A DNA stretch of 64,000 bases from a virus (taxonomy: Duplodnaviria > Caudoviricetes): the IMG/VR virus record IMGVR_UViG_3300028591_000072, positions 238,582 through 302,581 of that record. One strand, 5' to 3'. This document shows positions 20,370 to 31,751 of the stretch, piece after piece. A model generated the notes under the pieces. That model was given only the letters and a program-made list of their open reading frames with translations. It did no database searches and was not told the DNA's origin. Within the stretch, counting starts at the first letter, position 1, and each line of letters opens with the position of its first letter. The position numbers and the translations under genes are program-made.

Positions 20370-21467
20370 GTGTCAAAAATATCTTACTTTAATCAAGTAA
20401 CTCCTTGGAAAAGAGTGCTTAATGCGGCAAGAAGAACAATAGGGAAGGCTCCGTTAGATAAGGAGCCTTCAGATTCTTGGAAAGCAAAAATGCTTCTTGC
20501 TGAACATAGCCCAATTAGACTTCTTGAATTTGATTGGGTTTGGGATGACATCCAGCAATGGATTACAACACACTTAGTAAGACACCATGAAGGATGCGAA
20601 AAGTTTGTTCATTCACAAAGACAAGACAGACGTGAACTTGGCTGCTCACGTGATGAATTGCCACAAGGTGCTTTAAATGATATGGGAATGTCTGCTAATG
20701 CGCAAGCATTGATTAATATTTCAAGAAAAAGATTATGTTCTTGCGCATCAAAAGAAACTAGAGAGGCTTGGAAACAGGTTGTAGAAAAAATAAGAGAAAT
20801 TGACCCTGTATTAGCAGATAAGATGGTTTGTGAATGTTTGTACAGAAGTTTCTGCCCAGAATGGATGAATTCGTGTGGCTACGTAAATACCCCACAATAT
20901 CAGCTTGCAAGAGTTAGATATTTAAGAACCGATTATAATGACCAATGGACTCCAATTAAAGGATATGAAGGCTTATACGAAATATCTAGATTTGGAATTG
21001 TAAGAAGTATAGAAAGAGTTGTTCCTGATGGCGAAAATCGTTCAAAAACAATTCACGGAAAAGAGATAGCAATCATTCCAAATAAAAACAGAAGAGGATA
21101 TTGTTATGTTCATTTGTTTAAAGAAGGAAAAGAAAAGAGTTGTTTATTGCACAGACTTGTAGCTGAAACATTTATCCAAAATCCTGATAACAAACCAGAA
21201 GTAAACCATATAGACGGCAATAAATATAATAACCAGGTATCAAATCTTGAATGGGTTACTTCGGAAGAGAATAAACAACATGCGTGGAAAAATAAACTTT
21301 GCAATGCAGAACATAGAAAAACTAAAATAAAATGTATTCAAAATGGAGTTGTTTATAATTCTGTAGTTGAATGCTCTAAATTGCTTAACGTTGACAGAAG
21401 AAGTATTTTTAGACAATTAAAAGGAGAAAAAGAGTATGTTAAAGGATATTCGTTTGAAAGAGTTTGA
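20370..21467 (+). CDS. thyX: ThyX-like flavin-dependent thymidylate synthase fused in frame to a NUMOD4-HNH homing endonuclease
   Basis: EHSPIR and HLVRHH...SQR (ThyX-like), then W.PIKGYEGLYEISRFG.VRS (NUMOD4) and HRLVA...VNHIDGNKYNN..SNLEW (HNH); GTG start. Confidence 0.85.
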   Translation: MSKISYFNQVTPWKRVLNAARRTIGKAPLDKEPSDSWKAKMLLAEHSPIRLLEFDWVWDDIQQWITTHLVRHHEGCEKFVHSQRQDRRELGCSRDELPQGALNDMGMSANAQALINISRKRLCSCASKETREAWKQVVEKIREIDPVLADKMVCECLYRSFCPEWMNSCGYVNTPQYQLARVRYLRTDYNDQWTPIKGYEGLYEISRFGIVRSIERVVPDGENRSKTIHGKEIAIIPNKNRRGYCYVHLFKEGKEKSCLLHRLVAETFIQNPDNKPEVNHIDGNKYNNQVSNLEWVTSEENKQHAWKNKLCNAEHRKTKIKCIQNGVVYNSVVECSKLLNVDRRSIFRQLKGEKEYVKGYSFERV

Positions 21468-21555
21468 ATTTATGCGTCTCTGTGGATATTCAAAGACAGA
21501 ACAATTCCAAAAAGATTTGGAAAAATACAGGAGCACAAACTATGAAGACAAATGA
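21466..21555 (+). pseudogene. Displaced original 3' end of thyX
   Basis: Reads EFMRLCGYSKTEQFQKDLEKYRSTNYEDK*, aligning without gaps to EWMNSCGYVNTPQYQLARVRYLRTDYNDQ (from 20859), 12/29 identical. Confidence 0.85.
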
Positions 21556-21702
21556 TTACATGTGTCTTTTGAATATAACTTGCCTTCTTTGAACTTTTTT
21601 ACTCGTGTTTTGGTTTGTTGAATGGACTTGTGGTTTTGTCTTTACAACTTGTTTCACTGCTGAAACTTGCCTTGATGAAGAATTTCCTTTACATGCGCAC
21701 AT
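21556..21702 (-). CDS. Small basic 48-aa protein (MCACKG...), absent from the ORF track
   Basis: Open frame MCACKGNSSSRQVSAVKQVVKTKPQVHSTNQNTSKKVQRRQVIFKRHM*; ACTATTTAT motif upstream (21720-21728, minus). Confidence 0.65.
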   Translation of the reverse strand: MCACKGNSSSRQVSAVKQVVKTKPQVHSTNQNTSKKVQRRQVIFKRHM

Positions 21703-21789
21703 AATATAATAGTTTTAATATAAATAGTTCATAAACAAAAAAAGTCAGCCGTTATATGGATGACTTTTTGCTATTTATTACATTTAATT

Positions 21790-22257
21790 CTACTTTTTAA
21801 TTGGTTCTTCTTTTTTTTCTGCTTCTTTTTCGTCTTTAATCATACACAAAACAGAAAACATTCCATGACTTAGTTCTTTAACAATCTTTTCGGGCCTCAA
21901 TATGAATGCATCGAAAATCTTGTTATCTACTATCTTAATGCTCAATATTATCAATTTGTAAGAATCAACAGAAAGCGCCGAATCATCGTTTGGGGTTTGT
22001 GACATGCTTAGTATCTGATTTATGCTGTTAATATCACTCCTTGTTTTTGGCATTATTGCATAGCATTTATACCCCAATTTAGCGCATGGTATGAAATCTT
22101 CAAGTTTTGTTACTGATAAAATGTTGTTTTTCATACGTTCAAGTATTACACCGAATGAGCTGCATTCATACAGTCTGCATTGTTCTTCTTCATCAAACTC
22201 AGTTCCATCGAAAGCGATGTAAATGTTCTTCTTAATTTCAATTGTTGTTACTCTCAT
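21790..22257 (-). CDS. Hypothetical protein
   Basis: YIAFDGTEFDEEEQCRLYE motif common in phage early proteins. Confidence 0.7.
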   Translation of the reverse strand: MRVTTIEIKKNIYIAFDGTEFDEEEQCRLYECSSFGVILERMKNNILSVTKLEDFIPCAKLGYKCYAIMPKTRSDINSINQILSMSQTPNDDSALSVDSYKLIILSIKIVDNKIFDAFILRPEKIVKELSHGMFSVLCMIKDEKEAEKKEEPIKK

Positions 22258-24295: not shown

Positions 24296-24452
24296 GGTGC
24301 TCTGGCAGATATGGTATATGCACTGGACTGAATACAGAGTAAACTGTAAATCAAACTCTATAGTAATTCAGTTGGTAGAAACGTGAGTCGGTGGTTCGAG
24401 TCCGCCCTATAGAGCAAATCCAGCTAAAGTGGTTCGAGTCCACTGGGCACCA
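24296..24452 (+). tRNA. tRNA-Phe(GAA) interrupted by an 84-nt insert (24333-24416) containing a nested tRNA-like fold
   Basis: Removing 24333-24416 restores ctgga-ctgaaaa-tccag and a complete cloverleaf. Confidence 0.85.
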
Positions 24453-24543
24453 CAACTAAAATAACTAAATTGGTACAGATTAAAAAATAAAATTAAACGA
24501 CAATGATAAAACGAAAGTACATAAAACGAAAACATTTAAGTAG

Positions 24544-24812: not shown

Positions 24813-24844
24813 ATGTGCAATGGTTCTTTGAAAAAATGAAAAAA

Positions 24845-25371
24845 AATTCATTGTGCATAGGCGGGAAACCCCTATGTAGAATCTCCTAAATTCGGTGGAA
24901 ATCCTTTGGTGTGCTGGTTAAACTCCAGCCTTGTAGAAATACAAGAAGAGATTTGTCTGACTAGAAAGCACTAACCAATAATGTGTAAGGACTATACCGA
25001 GCGAAAATAAGATGTAAGGGTTGAATAAACAGGTCGGCACTTTAATATGTAGAACAGAAAGAGTGAATTACATCCACAGAAACTTACTATAAACTTATAA
25101 TCGTGTAGACTGAAATGGGAGATACCTAAGTTGATTTTAGCCTCATAGGAGTAATATTCGAGTAGGGAGTATAAACAGGCACTATGTCTGTCTCACTGAA
25201 AGAAGGCTATCTTGCAAGATTTCAATATGGTAATGTCAGTTAAGACTACAACAAGCATTTAGCTCCTTGGTTCGACTCCAAGGGATGCCTGTCACGTGTT
25301 GGAAAAGGTGTCATAAGTGGGTTCCACTTGTTTGGCTATGGTAACATAGTGTGGTAAATATCAATGTAATT
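24845..25371 (+). ncRNA. Exon-less group I intron-like RNA, copy 1
   Basis: P2, P3 (tctcc/ggaga), P4 (ttcggt/accgag), P5 (tcctt/aagga), P7 (gactg/cagtt), P8, P9.0 and P9 in canonical order; no interrupted host gene. Confidence 0.78.
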
Positions 25372-25378
25372 TATATAT

Positions 25379-25453
25379 GGCCCCGTAGCTCAATTGGATA
25401 GTAGCGACAGCCTTCTAAGCTGTAGGTTCTGGGTTCGACTCCCAGCGGGGTCA
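25379..25453 (+). tRNA. tRNA-Arg(TCT)
   Basis: acagc-cttctaa-gctgt. Confidence 0.93.
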
Positions 25454-25487
25454 CAAATTTAGTTCTTTGAAAAAATTGAAAAATACA

Positions 25488-26097
25488 AATTCATTGTGCA
25501 TAGGCGGGAAACCCCTATGTAGAATCTCCTAAATTCGGTGGAAATCCTTTACCTAGATATGAAAAGAAGTAGGAAAATTCATCCTAAGTTTCATTAATTT
25601 GAAATAGGTTCCGCAACACTAACAAATAATGTGTAAGGACTATACCGAGCGAAAATGAGAATAGAATGAAAAGCAAGTACAAGCAGAAGCAATTGCCTCC
25701 TTGTAGACTTCTTTATTTCTTTATATGATACTTATTGGTGGCAATTCGTAAGTATCATTTATTCTTATAAACGTGTAGAGACTGAACGGGAGATGCCTAA
25801 GTTGGAATTATATTAAGACGATGATAGCCCAGGATTCAAAAGAGCACCCATAATGAATGGGAGGTGGTTGGTATGAAATCCAACAATTCGTTGATAATAT
25901 TACTTGCAAGAATTTCAATATGGTAATGTCAGTCAAGACCACAATAAATAAACATACATGTCTAATGGTGAAGACAAGCGACTTGAAAAGAAAGGCTGAT
26001 GTCCGAGAGGAGACGCAAATGTGGCATTGATGTGGGTTCGATTCCCACTATGTTTGTTCGGCTATGGTAACATAGTGTGGTAAATATCAATGTAATT
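25488..26097 (+). ncRNA. Exon-less group I intron-like RNA, copy 2
   Basis: Same core blocks as copy 1 (64-nt and 45-nt identical ends), R-like gtagagactgaacgggag, different peripheral loops. Confidence 0.8.
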
Positions 26098-26105
26098 TAT
26101 ATATT

Positions 26106-26278
26106 ACTCCTATAGTTCAAGGGATAGAACGGAAGTTTCCTATACAAGAGTAAACTTGTTAAAATCAAAACTTCATGTTGGTGAAGATGGTCACACGTGC
26201 GTTAAAATGTCTACACGATGGTTCGAGTCCATCACATGAAGCAAACTTCTAATCTTGGTTCGAGTCCAAGTAGGAGTA
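26106..26278 (+). tRNA. tRNA-Arg(CCT) interrupted by a 101-nt insert (26143-26243) containing a nested tRNA-like fold
   Basis: Removing the insert restores gaagt-ttcctaa-acttc and a complete cloverleaf. Confidence 0.85.
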
Positions 26279-26305
26279 CAAAAAAAAATAACCAGATGAA
26301 AATTC

Positions 26306-26819: not shown

Positions 26820-26941
26820 TGGGATGTGGTGTAATGGTAGCACACGTAGCACTTTATGATTTCAGACACGGAATTTTACAGCAATTATTTTAGCGATGAA
26901 TTTGGGTTTCCGTGGTTTTGGTTCGATTCCAGACATCCCGA
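26820..26941 (+). ncRNA. tRNA-Pro(TGG) body with a 51-nt CAGCAA-handle insert (26847-26897)
   Basis: Removing the insert restores cggaa-tttgggt-ttccg; insert holds gatttc-agacac-ggaatt-ttacagcaa. Confidence 0.75.
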
Positions 26942-26951
26942 CTAATATGAT

Positions 26952-27035
26952 GGCCAAGTGTCGTAATTGGTAACCGAGCTGGTCTCAAAAACCAGTGGGC
27001 GAAAGCCCGTGTGGGTTCGAGTCCCACCTTGGCTA
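26952..27035 (+). tRNA. tRNA-Leu(CAA)
   Basis: ctggt-ctcaaaa-accag. Confidence 0.93.
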
Positions 27036-27077
27036 CAATGGTTAAAAACCAAATAATAATTAAATTAAAAATAAATT

Positions 27078-27692
27078 ATGAAGAGAATTTTATCAGTATT
27101 AATGATTGCTTTGATGGCAATTTCTTTGACATCTTGCGATTGGTTTAAAAAGAAAAACGACAATAAGAAAGAGATTGTTGTTGAAAATTTGGTTTCGGAA
27201 GATACCAAGTACATGGTAGAAAATTATGACACATGTTTTGTTTATTACGAGACACAAATTGTTTTAAATAACTATCTTGATGAGGAATGTGATGGTTCAT
27301 TTGAAAGTGTAACAAATATATTCCAAGGATATACACTTGTTGATAGCACGTTCCAACCTACAGTAGTTATTTTTGAACACATTGGAGATTCGTCAAGCAT
27401 TGAAAAGGTTAATGATGCATGGATGGAAGATATGGTAATGAAAAAAAATGACATTGCCATTTCATATAAGGATGCATTCAAATGTATGAACGAAGTAAAT
27501 TATCCAAAACCACACGCAAAGGCTTGTACTTTGAGAAAAGAAGTAGGACCTTGCCAAGCAAACGCCCAATATATTTTTGGTAACGTTGAATCACAATTGT
27601 ATGTTGATGCAATAACAGGCGATGTTTCACCAAATAGTCCAACATTCAGTTGTCTTGGCGCTGAAGAAAATGTTGAAGAAGTGGTCGAATAA
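27078..27692 (+). CDS. Lipoprotein
   Basis: Signal peptide with lipobox SLTSC; C-terminal LYVDAITGDV (PepSY-like). Confidence 0.8.
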   Translation: MKRILSVLMIALMAISLTSCDWFKKKNDNKKEIVVENLVSEDTKYMVENYDTCFVYYETQIVLNNYLDEECDGSFESVTNIFQGYTLVDSTFQPTVVIFEHIGDSSSIEKVNDAWMEDMVMKKNDIAISYKDAFKCMNEVNYPKPHAKACTLRKEVGPCQANAQYIFGNVESQLYVDAITGDVSPNSPTFSCLGAEENVEEVVE

Positions 27693-27711
27693 TGATTAAG
27701 AAATAAAAGTA

Positions 27712-27779
27712 GAAAACCTAACAGCAATTTTTAGTAAAAAATCAGAACTTTCACTTCCGACAATAACTAATGGTTTTCG
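27712..27779 (+). ncRNA. CAGCAA-handle RNA carrying a tRNA-Glu(TTC)-type anticodon stem-loop
   Basis: gaaaacc-taacagcaa ... tcagaa-ctttcac-ttccga ... ggttttc-g. Confidence 0.75.
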
Positions 27780-27846
27780 TTTTTAATAAAAGGTGACACT
27801 TTTAGGATTTTTTGCACACCGATAGACAAGGTAAAAATCCAAGTAA

Positions 27847-27999
27847 GCCTCTTTAGTATAAAGGTTATTACACTTGACTTGTACATCAGAAGGAACTGAT
27901 TAAAACCAAGCTATATTTGAAAGACAAAGCATATGCTGAAACAGCGATAGTTTCATATAGCTCAATCATGAGATGGCAGTTCGATTCTGCCAAGAGGCT
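27847..27999 (+). tRNA. tRNA-Thr(TGT) interrupted by an 81-nt insert (27884-27964) with tRNA-like geometry
   Basis: Removing the insert restores cttga-cttgtaa-tcatg; acceptor gcctctt/aagaggc. Confidence 0.8.
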
Positions 28000-28001
28000 C
28001 T

Positions 28002-28118
28002 AAAATCTTCGAGGGATTGATGCTTGGTTTAGTGTTTTGGTTACCTGACGAGGTAAACTGAGACAATAATAAGGAGTAAGAAGGAAGCATGCACTTGGCT
28101 TACTGTGTAGAAGATTTT
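28002..28118 (+). ncRNA. Unknown end-paired structured RNA
   Basis: aaaatcttc/gaagatttt; internal ttacct-gacg-aggtaa. Confidence 0.55.
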
Positions 28119-28123
28119 TTAAT

Positions 28124-28195
28124 GCGTTGTTAGTACAACGGTCAGTATATGGGCTTCCCAAGCCTAAGATGTCAGTTCGATTCTGATACAGCGCT
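28124..28195 (+). tRNA. tRNA-Gly(CCC)
   Basis: tgggc-ttcccaa-gccta. Confidence 0.92.
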
Positions 28196-28200
28196 CAAAT

Positions 28201-28344
28201 ACGGTGCGTAGTTTACGATATGGGTTTGACACGAACTGGAAGCATGGGCATCAGAGCCGTGCACGAAAGAGAATCAGGAGTGAAGCCTGACTAAACAACT
28301 ATATCAAAGAATGGTACGAAGACCTGGTGACAAGAACTCACCGT
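28201..28344 (+). ncRNA. Unknown end-paired structured RNA
   Basis: acggtg/caccgt; internal gcatgg/ccgtgc and tcagg/cctga. Confidence 0.55.
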
Positions 28345-28387
28345 TACTTGTTAAAAAAGGACCTCATCAGTAGTATCATTTAGATTT

Positions 28388-28469
28388 ACCTCAGTACCCG
28401 AACTGGTATAGGGACTACACTTAGGATGTAGCGGCTGAGCCACTGTGGGTTCGACTCCCACCTGGGGTA
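28388..28469 (+). tRNA. tRNA-Leu(TAG)
   Basis: ctaca-cttagga-tgtag. Confidence 0.92.
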
Positions 28470-28624
28470 CAAAAATAAATGGGTGAAGCTTTGTTATTGA
28501 AGCCATGGATTTTACCGTGAGAAGACGAATGTCCGCCCAAAAACACAGAGGAACTTGCCAAATTGATACTGTACAGCTTTTGGTAATAAGGATAAGTAGA
28601 CTCAGAAGGTTATATTCCTTATAT

Positions 28625-28696
28625 GCGGTGTTAGTACAACGGTTAGTATATCAGCTTGCCATGCTGAAGATGTCAGTTCGATTCTGATACACCGCT
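28625..28696 (+). tRNA. tRNA-Gly(GCC)
   Basis: tcagc-ttgccat-gctga. Confidence 0.93.
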
Positions 28697-28698
28697 CA

Positions 28699-28786
28699 AG
28701 GAAACATGCAGCAATCTTTCTCAGGTTGAAAATTTTGACTGTAAATCAAATAAGGTGGTTCGAGTCCACAAAAATATTGTTTCCTG
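28699..28786 (+). ncRNA. CAGCAA-handle RNA carrying a Tyr(GTA) anticodon stem-loop and a T arm
   Basis: aggaaac-atgcagcaa ... tttga-ctgtaaa-tcaaa, gtgg-ttcgagt-ccac ... gtttcct-g. Confidence 0.78.
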
Positions 28787-28793
28787 TTTTTAT

Positions 28794-28867
28794 GGGAGAG
28801 TAGCGTAGCTGGTTAGCGCAACGGACTGTTAATCCGTGGGTCGTGGGTTCGATTCCCACCTCTCCCG
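28794..28867 (+). tRNA. tRNA-Asn(GTT)
   Basis: acgga-ctgttaa-tccgt. Confidence 0.92.
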
Positions 28868-28872
28868 CTTGA

Positions 28873-29005
28873 AGAAATCTAACAGCAATTAATAAATTCG
28901 TTTGACTGTAAATCAAAAGGTTGTGGGTTCGAGTCCCGCTGTCGCCAAAGATTATATTAGTTGAAGGCGACATAGCTCAATGGTAGAGAAAGAAAATGAT
29001 TTCTG
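28873..29005 (+). ncRNA. CAGCAA-handle RNA enclosing a circularly permuted tRNA-Tyr(GTA)
   Basis: 3' part (28899-28947) precedes 5' part (28966-28988); acceptor ggcgaca/tgtcgcc; handle agaaatc-taacagcaa ... gatttct-g. Confidence 0.85.
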
Positions 29006-29035
29006 AGAAAAACAATGACGCTTAACCGTCAGAAC

Positions 29036-29188
29036 ATGTTTCTAAATTCATTAAAGATTTAGCGCACTTGTAGAGCGATAGGACTACACCTAAACCGAGG
29101 TGAGTGGTGAAGTACCGAGGAAGCTTTATTTGAAAGGTTACGAGCTCTTAAACAGATGATGGCATAGTTAAGAAGGTGCCATAAACAT
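29036..29188 (+). ncRNA. Unknown multi-hairpin RNA
   Basis: atgttt/aaacat closing stem; cacct/aggtg, atggcat/gtgccat, ctaaatt/gatttag. Confidence 0.5.
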
Positions 29189-29201
29189 TTCTTTTTAATA
29201 T

Positions 29202-29274
29202 GGGGGTATGGTTGAATGGCTACAATGCGGGCTTGTCACGCCCTGTGGTGCGGGTTCGAATCCCGTTATCCCCG
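29202..29274 (+). tRNA. tRNA-Asp(GTC)
   Basis: gggc-ttgtcac-gccc; G73. Confidence 0.9.
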
Positions 29275-29353
29275 CAATATTGGGGTTTCGAAAAAAAACG
29301 ATAAAATTGCGTATAATTTGGCTTTCGAAACTATTTATAATAAAACAAAGTTT

Positions 29354-30073
29354 ATGTGTGATGGTTTAAATTTTAAATGTAAACAGTGTGGCGTAACATT
29401 TGAAAAAACAAAGTCTGAGTTATCAAAAAACCATAATGTTGTTCCTGTCTTTTGTTCTAAAGACTGTCAACAAAAATGGTATAAAGAAAATTCGTATATA
29501 ACTGTAGAATGCAAATGTTGTGGAAAAGAATTTACAATAAAAAAAGGTGAATACAATAAAAATAAAAACAAAAACTTTTTTTGTTCACATTCTTGTGCTG
29601 CTAAATTTAATAATAAAACTAGAACAATAAAAAAAACTGTTTTTGAAAAAGATAACAAAATTAAAATATCTAAAAAGAAAGAAGATATATATGGTGTATG
29701 TCCAATTTGCGGAAATAAAAAATTTAAGAAATCAATATTGTGCAAAAAATGTAGAAACGAGCAAAAAAGAAATAACATAAAAAAGAGAACACTTGGATAT
29801 TTTATTGAAGGAAAAAAATATTTGGGTTCAAAATGTAATGAAATAAGAAAAGACGCAAAGAGAACAATTGAAGAAAGCTGTGTCGAAAAAACTTGTGCAT
29901 ATTGTCATAACCACGAGTTTGATGGCATATTAGAAGTACATCATATAAAAGGAATTTTGGAGTTTGATAAAAGCACGACAATAGAAGAAATAAATGATAT
30001 TAATAACCTTGTTTGGTTATGTCCAAATCATCACAGGATGCTTGAACTTGGATTAATTAAACTTGAAAAATAG
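29354..30073 (+). CDS. HNH homing endonuclease with zinc-finger repeats
   Basis: CxxC...FCS..C repeats; LEVHHI...NLVWLCPNHH; start moved to 29354 because the longer frame overlaps tRNA-Asp and ACTATTTAT lies at 29330. Confidence 0.85.
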   Translation: MCDGLNFKCKQCGVTFEKTKSELSKNHNVVPVFCSKDCQQKWYKENSYITVECKCCGKEFTIKKGEYNKNKNKNFFCSHSCAAKFNNKTRTIKKTVFEKDNKIKISKKKEDIYGVCPICGNKKFKKSILCKKCRNEQKRNNIKKRTLGYFIEGKKYLGSKCNEIRKDAKRTIEESCVEKTCAYCHNHEFDGILEVHHIKGILEFDKSTTIEEINDINNLVWLCPNHHRMLELGLIKLEK

Positions 30074-30079
30074 ATTAAA

Positions 30080-30209
30080 AGGAATTTAACAGCAAGTTAC
30101 AATAGGTAAACACATTTGTAAACAAAACAAAGATTGTTGGTTCGAGTCCAACTGCGGCTTTAGGGGAACCGATGGCTGCATAGTGAAATGGAAGATAAAT
30201 AGATTCCTG
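30080..30209 (+). ncRNA. CAGCAA-handle RNA with permuted T arm / closed acceptor stem / degenerate D arm (YrlA-like order)
   Basis: aggaatt-taacagcaa ... gttgg-ttcgagt-ccaac, tgcggct...ggctgca, tagtgaaatgg ... gattcct-g. Confidence 0.75.
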
Positions 30210-30338
30210 TAATCTAAAAAATATAAGGAAAGAAGGACACACGTACCTTAAACAAGTACGAAAAGTTAGTGCTGGCCACATAAAGTCGCCAAGCGTCTCA
30301 GGGTGGATGCACGATAGTGAAATGTAAATTTCTTAGAT

Positions 30339-30411
30339 GGGGAGTTCATTTAGCGGTTTAGGATGCAGGTTCGACAGACCTGTCACTATGGTTCGATTCC
30401 ATAACACCCCA
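30339..30411 (+). tRNA. Atypical tRNA, nominal Val(GAC), with C33 and G38
   Basis: caggt-tcgacag-acctg; one acceptor mismatch; body resembles Glu/Gln/Asp-type tRNAs. Confidence 0.6.
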
Positions 30412-30415
30412 CAAT

Positions 30416-30650
30416 CGGTTTGTTGTTGATAATCAAAGGAAAGTTGAGTTGGACATGGGTTCGAGTCCCATATGGTCCACTAAGTAATTGATTTTCAAGT
30501 AAATACGGGCCATCTTGGTTTTGACAGCTAATGAGTACAATGGAAGTAGACATCCGAGATGCCATAAAATAACTGGCAACGAAAATTATGCTTATGCTTA
30601 TGCAGCAGCCTAAGGCAGTGCATTGAGCAGGTTGGCAGCGAACCAAATCG
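30416..30650 (+). ncRNA. ssrA: Circularly permuted (two-piece) tmRNA
   Basis: Acceptor piece gac-atggg-ttcgagt-cccat-atggtcc-a ends at 30479, before the coding piece gggccat-cttggttttgacag at 30507; G3:U70; tag ataact-GNENYAYAYAAA* (30575-30613). Confidence 0.9.
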
Positions 30651-30658
30651 CTGCACAT

Positions 30659-30734
30659 GGTCGGTTCGTCTAGTCTGGCCTAGGACATCAGGTTTTCATC
30701 CTGGGAATCATGGGTTCAAATCCCATACCGACTA
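30659..30734 (+). tRNA. tRNA-Glu(TTC)
   Basis: tcagg-ttttcat-cctgg. Confidence 0.92.
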
Positions 30735-30740
30735 CATCCA

Positions 30741-30945
30741 GATAACTACAAATCTGCATTGGCAAAGTTGCTTTCCATAACAATGTGCAACCAGTTTCAG
30801 CGTTTCAACTGTAAAAATGCGAGATTTTTATTTGTTTGGCTAAACGAAAACAAATCCTTATAGTTGGTATATTGGTAAAAAAGGCGGAATGGTAGATAAC
30901 CGTTTTTATCCAACATTTATGGCGATTCATGATGTAGCCATAAAA
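30741..30945 (+). ncRNA. Unknown multi-hairpin RNA(s)
   Basis: gttgc/gcaac, cagtt/aactg, atttgtt/aacaaat, aaaggcgg/ccgttttt, tttatggc/gccataaa. Confidence 0.5.
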
Positions 30946-30946
30946 T

Positions 30947-31020
30947 CGGCCTGTAGCTCAGTTGGTTAGAGCATCACACTGATAATGTGGGGGTCGGTGG
31001 TTCGAGTCCACCCTGGCCGA
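30947..31020 (+). tRNA. tRNA-Ile(GAT)
   Basis: tcaca-ctgataa-tgtgg. Confidence 0.93.
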
Positions 31021-31077
31021 CAAAATTTACAAATTTATTTGTTCTTTTAAAAAATAGTTTGTATATTTAAAATAAAG

Positions 31078-31210
31078 AAAGTAAAAATCCCACCAAGGGC
31101 GAAACAATTGGTGGTTAGTTCTATCCCGTTAGTAATCACGGTCACAAGGTAGGAGATAAAGAACTGTAAGAGGCTCAGAAGTCGGATGACAAGAAACGAT
31201 AGTTCACTTT
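31078..31210 (+). ncRNA. Unknown structured RNA
   Basis: aaagt/acttt ends; ccaccaa/ttggtgg, agttct/agaact; follows a tttgtatattt promoter-like motif. Confidence 0.5.
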
Positions 31211-31216
31211 CTAAAT

Positions 31217-31290
31217 GGGCCCATGCCTTCAATTGGTACAGGACCGCCTTTGCACGGCGACATTTATCGGTTCGAATCCGATTGGGTCCA
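31217..31290 (+). tRNA. tRNA-Ala(TGC)
   Basis: cgcc-tttgcac-ggcg; G3:U70. Confidence 0.9.
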
Positions 31291-31309
31291 CATCTTTATT
31301 ATTATTATA

Positions 31310-31455
31310 ATATGAAGATGGTAGCGCCACAACGTAACGTAATTGGTCCCTGATGTTCTTCAAACCAATTCCCTATCGTAGTTAGGGTAAAGTCTTTACA
31401 CGAGTTTCTATAATACGAAAGCCAAAATGTACAGTTTATGTCGGAAGAAACTCTT
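31310..31455 (+). ncRNA. Unknown multi-hairpin RNA
   Basis: aattggt/accaatt, cccta/taggg, gagtttct/agaaactc. Confidence 0.45.
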
Positions 31456-31461
31456 TATAAT

Positions 31462-31586
31462 GCCAAGGTAGCTCAGTGGTTTAGAGCAATGGGAGTGTAT
31501 AAATGATTTTTGATTAAAAATCTAACAGCAACTTCCAAATACCTATGTAAACCCATTGGTCGGAGGTTCGAATCCTTCTCTTGGCT
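31462..31586 (+). ncRNA. tRNA body (Thr-like acceptor, loop remnant tgtaaa) with the CAGCAA handle inserted in the anticodon loop
   Basis: Intact acceptor, D and T arms; atggg/cccat stem encloses gattttt-gatt-aaaaatc-taacagcaa. Confidence 0.78.
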
Positions 31587-31594
31587 CAAAAAAT

Positions 31595-31671
31595 GCATGT
31601 ATGAAAGCAGACGGGATGTGCTTCTGTCGTAATTCGGACAGGATATGTTGGTTCGAATCCAACTGCATGCG
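31595..31671 (+). ncRNA. tRNA-like RNA with 8-nt non-canonical anticodon loop
   Basis: gcatgta/tgcatgc, 5-bp D stem aagca/tgctt, ctgtc-gtaattcg-gacag, canonical T arm. Confidence 0.7.
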
Positions 31672-31676
31672 CAATA

Positions 31677-31751
31677 GGAAAACATACAGCAAGTTTTATC
31701 AAATTCAAGTTACAATCTTTTAAATTGTGGGACTAAATTTTTTGTTTTCCG
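31677..31751 (+). ncRNA. CAGCAA-handle RNA carrying a tRNA-Lys(TTT) anticodon stem-loop
   Basis: ggaaaac-atacagcaa ... acaat-cttttaa-attgt ... gttttcc-g. Confidence 0.8.

Follow-up and report, generated by a model that had tools for sequence, protein, structure and literature searches.

Exon-less derivatives of tRNA group I introns in a phage tRNA array, with a guide that pairs with their own 3' tail

Group I introns are usually seen as selfish elements whose RNA exists to remove itself. The closest known relatives of the RNAs described here are the IC3 introns of bacterial tRNA anticodon loops, such as those of Azoarcus tRNA-Ile(CAU) and cyanobacterial tRNA-Leu(UAA) (Rfam RF00028). Phage tRNA arrays also house GOLLD and ROOL, large, abundant, highly structured and ORF-less RNAs. 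To our knowledge, the sole well-described conversion of an intron to another role is GIR1. This lariat-capping ribozyme (Didymium, Naegleria) has an IC3-like origin, a P15 pseudoknot and a reduced J8/7 that is complemented by the linker after omega-G (PMC2219692). Self-targeting (STS) ribozymes, in turn, have been engineered to target themselves end to end, with the P1 helix alone being sufficient (PMC10457212). In the literature searched, largely outside subscription papers, phage group I RNAs that lack exons or dock their own tail are not described.

We analyzed a window of 64,000 nucleotides, the last 64 kb of a 302.6-kb virus record (32% GC, 82% complete), which holds two copies of an exon-less group I-derived RNA, together with related loci retrieved from other genomes (L-numbers; about 60 of them by exact scans with P3-P4 and P9 motifs, many carrying several family blocks) and five further phage genomes (G001-G005, of which G002 is complete). 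Nucleotides of the core are given in Tetrahymena numbering as assigned in this analysis. Similar to IC3 tRNA introns, the two copies have the P2-P9 order, the P3/P7 pseudoknot, the tetraloop/receptor positions and a guide directly 5' of P2. However, they have no exons and no upstream P1, the guide is paired to a downstream tail, J8/7 has 4-5 nt instead of 7, G262 and A263 are lost (copy 1), C312 is replaced by A (C312A), the omega position is an A, and relatives carry their own transcription signals. As folded here, with neither exons nor P1 and with an altered G site, the copies are not group I introns; by analogy, they may resemble a group I fold locked in its product state.

The copies share with GIR1 the IC3 ancestry, the lack of a 5' exon, the reduced J8/7, and a short U-ending linker after the omega base that is followed by a helix with the 5' end. 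In contrast, GIR1 needs omega-G and its P7 site, whereas the copies have canonical P2 and P8, omega-A and no endonuclease mRNA downstream. A P15 pseudoknot replacing P1/P2 is absent from both copies, where P2 is an intact hairpin, and a predicted fold with no P15 is not that of a lariat-capping ribozyme. GIR1-type branching takes an omega-G bound in P7 and a U three bases further on; the omega base is an A in both copies and a G in the sister element L060, whose 3-nt linker has a U at its end. The order of guide, ribozyme, omega, spacer and target in one RNA is that of the STS ribozymes, but the latter need a U.G pair and an intact core and circularize long inserts, whereas the natural members have spacers of 3-10 nt and mostly lack the U.G (10 of 12); only L043 and L032, not the window copies, combine U.G with an intact core. 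Like GOLLD and ROOL, the copies are structured and ORF-less and lie among phage tRNA genes, whereas their fold is unrelated and its ribozyme ancestor is traceable; no Rfam match of the copies to GOLLD or ROOL was found.

Two exon-less copies in a phage tRNA array

The tRNA array housing both copies includes at least 26 tRNA genes and a permuted tmRNA, and is preceded by a Bacteroidota-type promoter; a sigma-70 promoter scan gave no signal above that of shuffled sequences. The host is probably a rumen Bacteroidota. The only RNA runs covering half of the window are sheep-gut libraries from one sample, possibly its source. The following features were mapped, all on the plus strand:

24823-24832: boxA-like leader motif ahead of copy 1, present as well upstream of the tRNA array, copy 2 and the exon-less L004 and L021
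24844-25372: copy 1, exon-less group I-derived RNA closed by a 5' leader/tail helix; its copy-specific P8 loop is covered by RNA contigs at a depth of about 199
24849-24853: copy 1 guide, in the IGS position immediately 5' of P2; it aligns to the IGS of 28 tRNA introns and pairs with 25362-25366
25105-25113: copy 1 J6/7 and P7 5' strand without G262 and bulged A263; same deletion in L012, L018, L019, L021, L059, L060 and L062
25232-25241: copy 1 shortened J8/7 and P7 3' strand, with G:U at the G-binding pair in this copy only
25265-25283: tRNA T-arm hairpin in the copy 1 P9 loop
25356-25372: copy 1 omega position (A, 25358) and self-targeting tail
25379-25454: tRNA-Arg(UCU) between the copies, whose processing would free the copy 1 3' end and the copy 2 5' end
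25462-25471: boxA-like leader motif before copy 2
25487-26098: copy 2, exon-less group I-derived RNA that forms a mosaic with canonical introns; 100%-identical RNA contig over 25627-25925, depth 143.5
25658-25903: copy 2 P6 loop, canonical R strand and P8 loop, common to tRNA-Leu introns of other phages
25925-25934: copy 2 shortened J8/7 and P7 3' strand; C312A, hence G:A against the imported canonical R
25950-26053: cloverleaf-like module of the copy 2 P9 loop, with its T-arm at 26032-26048 and a loop heptamer of the Ser(UGA) type; the resemblance is read from sequence
26082-26098: copy 2 omega position (A, 26084) and self-targeting tail

The identical blocks on which the original prediction was built were all recovered: 64 nt at 24844-24907 and 25487-25550 (blastn E 1e-27), a 32-nt P5-P4 block, and 45 nt at 25334-25378 and 26060-26104. 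The 302.6-kb genome holds no copies besides these two. The P2-P9 order is that of tRNA introns, as had been proposed; the P3-P9 core helices are paired, P2 is an 8-bp hairpin with covarying relatives, the P8 receptor is kept, and the P5, P6, P8 and P9 loops cannot be aligned between the copies. The claim that no gene is interrupted also held: removal of either copy does not rebuild a tRNA, in contrast to 28 relatives, and no ORF spans either copy. An upstream partner with U.G for the guide (P1 at the 5' splice site) was found for neither copy. As described originally, each copy follows a boxA-like site, located 31 and 35 nt ahead of P2 in copies 1 and 2, and is followed 6-8 nt past the tail by a tRNA-Arg; the tRNA-Arg(CCU) after copy 2 is itself an insert-split tRNA.

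The proposed pairing of the 3' tail with the IGS-like 5' end was likewise found, and the leader/tail helix extends to 10 bp with one bulge in RNAfold structures (minimum free energy and centroid for copy 1, centroid for copy 2). Folding z-scores of the whole RNAs are modest (-1.7 and -2.7). Further deviations of the core were recovered as predicted: a short J8/7 in both copies, G:U at the G-binding pair of copy 1, G262 facing an A in copy 2, and AAA after P9.0 in both, i.e., omega-A. The cloverleaf-like module in the copy 2 P9 loop was not scored as a tRNA by ARAGORN or Rfam. It should be noted that a search of the copies against Rfam (gathering threshold and E 10) gave no match to group I introns or any other family, and that the long canonical relatives are missed as well, which makes this result uninformative.

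Both copies are represented in RNA. In run X1, contigs 100% identical to the copy-specific loops have depths of 143.5 (copy 2) and about 199 (copy 1), as compared to 5-11 for the neighboring tRNAs and ORFs; in run X2, the depth is about 680 over the copy-specific loops and 8-34 over the flanks. The loops are thus about 15-80 times deeper than the flanks in one sheep sample, where depths are contig means free of strand or end information and small tRNAs are under-sampled, and we read this difference only as accumulation of both RNAs. No circles of copies 1 and 2 were present among the RNA joints listed. A loose contig end in X2 matches the P6 loop of L018, which indicates another exon-less member in that library. 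Across rumen metatranscriptomes, the RNAs of the family are very abundant: its conserved blocks reach a summed contig depth of about 10,000 in two of the runs X1, X2, X3 and X12, far above that of the neighboring tRNAs, with the small-share runs X3 and X12 representing mostly relatives rather than this phage.

Two other parts of the window deserve mention. An ORF at 20370-21467 fuses a Thy1 (thyX) part to NUMOD4/HNH endonuclease domains, which is typical of an intron-split thyX; just after it, region 21467-21933 has a summed RNA contig depth of 1332 (X2) and 1171 (X3), which may reflect the 3' part of a group I intron or a cross-mapping RNA. Region 26820-31750 encodes several tRNA-like RNAs with a common ACAGCAA module, some of them with expanded or partial arms.

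Ancestry and recurrence of the exon-less elements

The conserved blocks of the copies are nearly identical to those of 28 introns from tRNA genes, whose removal at a U|...G boundary rebuilds tRNA-Leu(UAA), Arg(UCU), Lys(UUU), Ser(UGA), Tyr or Met/Ile(CAU). A compact relative sharing the P9 block, L057, matches RF00028 above the gathering score (54.4 bits). All 27 canonical members scored have G-C as the G-binding pair; their J8/7 is 7 nt long, and the remainder of P7 shows covariation. Based on these shared blocks, the bridge provided by L057 and the canonical relatives, we conclude that both copies derive from IC3-like group I introns in anticodon loops of rumen-phage tRNAs. One RNA contig carries a 3'-to-5' joint of a canonical-type relative, which suggests that the parent family is active and yields excised circles.

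Several family loci deviate from the canonical state in other ways. The introns at L009 (2400-2890), L044 (640-1500), L005, L016 and L017 lie in tRNA shells unable to form a normal anticodon loop, and those of L009 and L044, in anticodon-less shells, have a short J8/7 too; the anticodon stem of such shells may serve as the closing helix, providing a second route to a non-splicing RNA. At L011 (4354-4787, minus strand), a family intron with a canonical core has non-tRNA flanks that could form a small hairpin if joined. Broken members include L071 (5941-6425, in a tRNA-Ser, 3' half deleted), L048 (1-460, internal R-P8 duplication) and L031 (5284-5804, 5' tRNA half missing). A weak RF00028 match outside the window, at 93877-94107 of genome C1 (34 bits, E 7e-8), is an unrelated group I intron.

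The exon-less subgroup comprises 13 distinct sequences with six guide types: both window copies, L060, L066 (3' end missing), L018, L019, L059, L062, L012/L065, L021, L004, L043 and L032. About half of them came from scans aimed at the deviant core, and the exon-less share of the family is therefore inflated. A scan of GTDB genomes with the deviant S motif gave 33 matches, none with family blocks, the GenBank phage collection had no matches to the family, and three more viral scans for new tail and leader types returned only already known members.

Several exon-less members are their own transcription units, as judged from signals around them. For example, L019, L059 and L062 have a Bacteroidota-type -7 box 26-27 nt before P2, L004 has a promoter box and a boxA upstream, and the tails of L004 and L021 are a terminator-like hairpin followed by a U run. 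In G002 and G003 the exon-less element lies at least 28 kb from the tRNA cluster, and L060 is located directly between two tRNAs. In a syntenic sister phage, L066 occupies the same site as the window element but carries different loops at P5, P6 and P8. Finally, two exon-less members, L043 (7970-8545, minus strand) and L032 (1350-2105, minus strand), have an intact core, omega-G and a U.G pair in the guide-tail helix; they are the best candidates for natural self-targeting ribozymes.

In a tree built from 186 core columns, with the trait columns removed, the exon-less members require 2-4 changes, and their grouping in one clade is not rejected (p-AU 0.064). The short-J8/7 members are compatible with one clade (p-AU 0.47), and mosaicism weakens the tree. 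These members perhaps form one clade, and the tree cannot tell one origin from several; hence, we count the rebuilt core as one retained event.

Guide-tail pairing and the rebuilt core

A pairing of 5-7 bp between guide and tail was found in all 12 complete exon-less members, always starting from the last guide base, with the tail stretch beginning 3-10 bases after the omega position (the third base behind P9.0). Guide and tail covary. In 12 of 12 cases the guide has its target within its own RNA, 3' of omega, and the six guide/tail types are UAUGAG/CUCAUA, UUUGUG/CACAAA, UGUGUG/CACACA, AUUGUG/CAUAAU, CAUUG/CAAUG (the window) and UUUGGAG/CUUUAAA. Among the 720 assignments of tails to guides across the six types, only 2 reach the score of the real one, and the combined p from shuffled tails is 2e-6, for an offset window chosen after seeing the data. 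Canonical introns score 3-11 against their own 3' flank (n=27), every one of them lower than the exon-less members (12-15). At the cut position, U.G occurs only in L043 and L032, and the other 10 of 12 have C-G or A-U, with A-U in both window copies. Tails of four types fold as anticodon-like hairpins, in several types with omega-G included. By its position in the sequence, the tail would occupy the place where joined exons would bind.

The core of most of these RNAs has been rebuilt. J8/7 is shortened by 2-3 nt (4-5 nt instead of 7) in 9 of the 12 complete exon-less members and in L066, as compared to none of the 27 canonical introns. All ten exon-less sequences with a short J8/7 have C312A, and eight also lack G262 and the bulged A263. 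The P7 changes match on both strands, the top pair and the bulge being lost and a pair gained at the bottom, which leaves P7 at 6 bp. The P3, P7, P8, P9.0 and P9 helices are 97-100% paired in exon-less members, and G264-C311 is kept in 9 of the 11 members scored. Being common to ten exon-less members and absent from the tRNA-splitting introns checked, the rebuilt core is not random decay.

Other deviations are confined to single lineages. G:U at the G-binding pair occurs in copy 1 only, its sister element L060 having G-C and omega-G; among short-J8/7 exon-less members, omega-A is found in this phage only; and in L004 the G-binding site is broken differently, with G:A at the binding pair. A conserved adenosine-binding site formed by omega-A and G:U was considered and ruled out, since relatives keep G-C and omega-G. 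The copy 2 P6 loop is 88% identical over 111 nt to that of L015, and its P8 loop is 98% identical over 94 nt to that of L034. The G:A of copy 2 arose because its P6-R-P8 segment came from canonical introns, and this recombination explains the swappable loops. Loops are swapped through identical blocks across the entire family, in ordinary tRNA introns too. Thus, of the core changes listed in the original prediction, the short J8/7, joined by C312A, recurs in exon-less homologs, while G:U, G:A and omega-A are lineage quirks that do not signal a new function, and neither do the exchangeable loops. T-arm hairpins in loops are likewise found throughout the family: they occur in 3 of the 12 exon-less members and in 7 of the 27 canonical ones, against 0.04 expected per group.

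Possible roles of the exon-less RNAs

Taken together, the elements are real, recurrent and selected, with a function that can be proposed from sequence. Our preferred reading, which we hold at about even odds, is that the copies are domesticated, non-splicing descendants of tRNA group I introns, kept as stable, abundant, self-closed scaffold RNAs. They would be transcribed along with the tRNA array (relatives using their own promoter and terminator) and cut out by processing of the flanking tRNAs. The IC3 core would then fold, and the tail, still tethered, would take the place of the spliced anticodon loop in the P1/P10 substrate site; docked in this way, it would close the molecule and protect its ends. 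The shift in P7 and the loss of 2-3 nt from J8/7 would let the fold survive without the normal guanosine pocket, and catalysis has presumably been lost. The rigid core would display exchangeable hairpin and tRNA-like modules; our guess for the most likely job is to titrate, as a decoy or sponge, host factors that bind RNA or attack tRNAs. Against the scaffold reading, exon-less members carry T-arms no more often than ordinary family introns do, and most of them have none; also, most relatives keep G264-C311 and omega-G, which a dead core does not need. The original prediction had proposed a domesticated group I fold, acting either as a trans-acting or self-processing ribozyme or as a display scaffold. 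Domestication is favored by the recurrence of the exon-less state, tail-guide pairing and short J8/7, by the transcription signals of relatives and by the high RNA depth, and the display scaffold is the option that we prefer.

Less likely, though the strongest of the alternatives, is a self-processing, guide-first ribozyme. Here the tail, docked as P1, would be cleaved by exogenous G or water, or else a U just after omega-G would branch as in the lariat-capping ribozyme; the linker would fill in for the shortened J8/7, and the reaction would mature the 3' end, form a tiny ring or cap the RNA downstream. The layout is that of engineered end-to-end self-targeting (PMC10457212), and GIR1, too, goes back to an IC3-like intron, the linker after omega-G making up for its reduced J8/7 (PMC2219692). 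Retention of G264-C311 in 9 of 11 exon-less members scored, the U at the end of every linker, and the intact cores, omega-G and U.G at the canonical position of L043 and L032 also favor this scenario. However, the window copies have omega-A, A-U at the cut position and G:U or G:A in P7, their intact P2 hairpin leaves no GIR1-type P15, the terminator-like hairpin ending the L004 and L021 RNAs leaves nothing to cap, the rings would have only 6-13 nt, and the flanking tRNAs already supply processing sites. Self-processing may be mainly relevant to L043 and L032 and less so to the window copies. We similarly regard it as rather unlikely that the short-J8/7 lineage is a second natural rewiring of IC3, independent of the lariat-capping ribozyme, producing an RNA enzyme of altered chemistry or specificity that cuts or caps its own tail or acts in trans on tRNA(CAU) anticodon loops with the tail as an auto-inhibitory mimic.

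We find it doubtful that the copies are stranded relics or selfish passengers, with gene conversion by active introns keeping them similar and a nuclease-resistant fold making them abundant. In favor of this reading, copy 2 is clearly mosaic, with segments from canonical introns, the changes to G:U, to omega-A and, in L004, to G:A are sporadic, broken members exist (L071, L048 and L031b), and the entire family is very deep in rumen RNA libraries. But covariation of guide and tail, promoters and terminators of their own, and a matched remodeling of both P7 strands that the canonical donors lack cannot be products of conversion, and the element is kept at the same site in the sister phage and duplicated in the window phage.

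It is improbable in our estimation that the RNAs act in trans to bind or cut the anticodon loops of CAU tRNAs (Met, fMet, Ile2), with the cis tail as an auto-inhibitory mimic displaced by the tRNA. The guides of four of the six types (A-D) can pair over 4-6 bp with a CAU anticodon loop, and that of the window type can do so in a shifted register; CAU tRNAs occur in all phages checked, the loop in G003 and G005 matching the guide 6/6 with U.G; four types have anticodon-like hairpin tails; and just one of the 28 canonical relatives resides in a CAU tRNA. On the other hand, descent from introns of CAU tRNAs explains the match with no current function, the window guide matches no anticodon in the default register, and a tethered tail should beat a free tRNA.

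The tRNA array also contains a separate mobile family of inserts of 80-100 nt in anticodon loops, each composed of a short hairpin, an A-rich linker, a tRNA-like cloverleaf and a CA or CU end. They were found in the window (24296-24455, 26105-26279 and 27847-28000), in L071, in G001 (134-142 kb) and in L066, and are present or absent at orthologous tRNAs, L066 having none in tRNA-Phe and one in tRNA-Tyr. In a pattern scan for inserts, 19 of 20 matches were due to chance, and only L071 was real. RNA contigs span the Phe and Thr inserts in unspliced form, and removal was not seen among the joints listed, which is not evidence given the poor capture of mature tRNAs. RtcB was not found in five phages; a search for T4 RNA ligase had no positive control and carries no weight.

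The suggestion that the copies help to remove such inserts from the Phe, Arg(CCU) and Thr tRNAs by trans-splicing is highly improbable: although both features are present in the window as well as in its sister L066, CAA across the 3' junction of the inserts can pair with the guide triplet of the window type (a post hoc observation, with a chance of coincidence of about 1 in 10) and no RtcB was found in the genome (82% complete), exon-less RNAs and inserts occur mostly in different phages, the guide forms no consistent P1 with the 5' exons of the inserts, and some inserts end in CU instead of A. Specifically, G002 (complete) and G003-G005 (tRNA arrays included) have the exon-less RNA and no insert by profile search, three further phages with the RNA have no insert by a strict pattern, and G001 has five inserts and only a truncated cis intron (60% of the genome covered).

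In these phages, intron RNA is kept, expressed and duplicated with nothing to splice, next to nearly identical splicing relatives in the same habitat. The canonical introns, the exon-less members with an intact core and those with a rebuilt core form a natural series, in which the change from a ribozyme to a scaffold or another enzyme can be tested. The guide-first layout engineered for the production of circular RNA is also used in nature, and the compact core, tolerant of any loop, might serve as a scaffold for display or cryo-EM.
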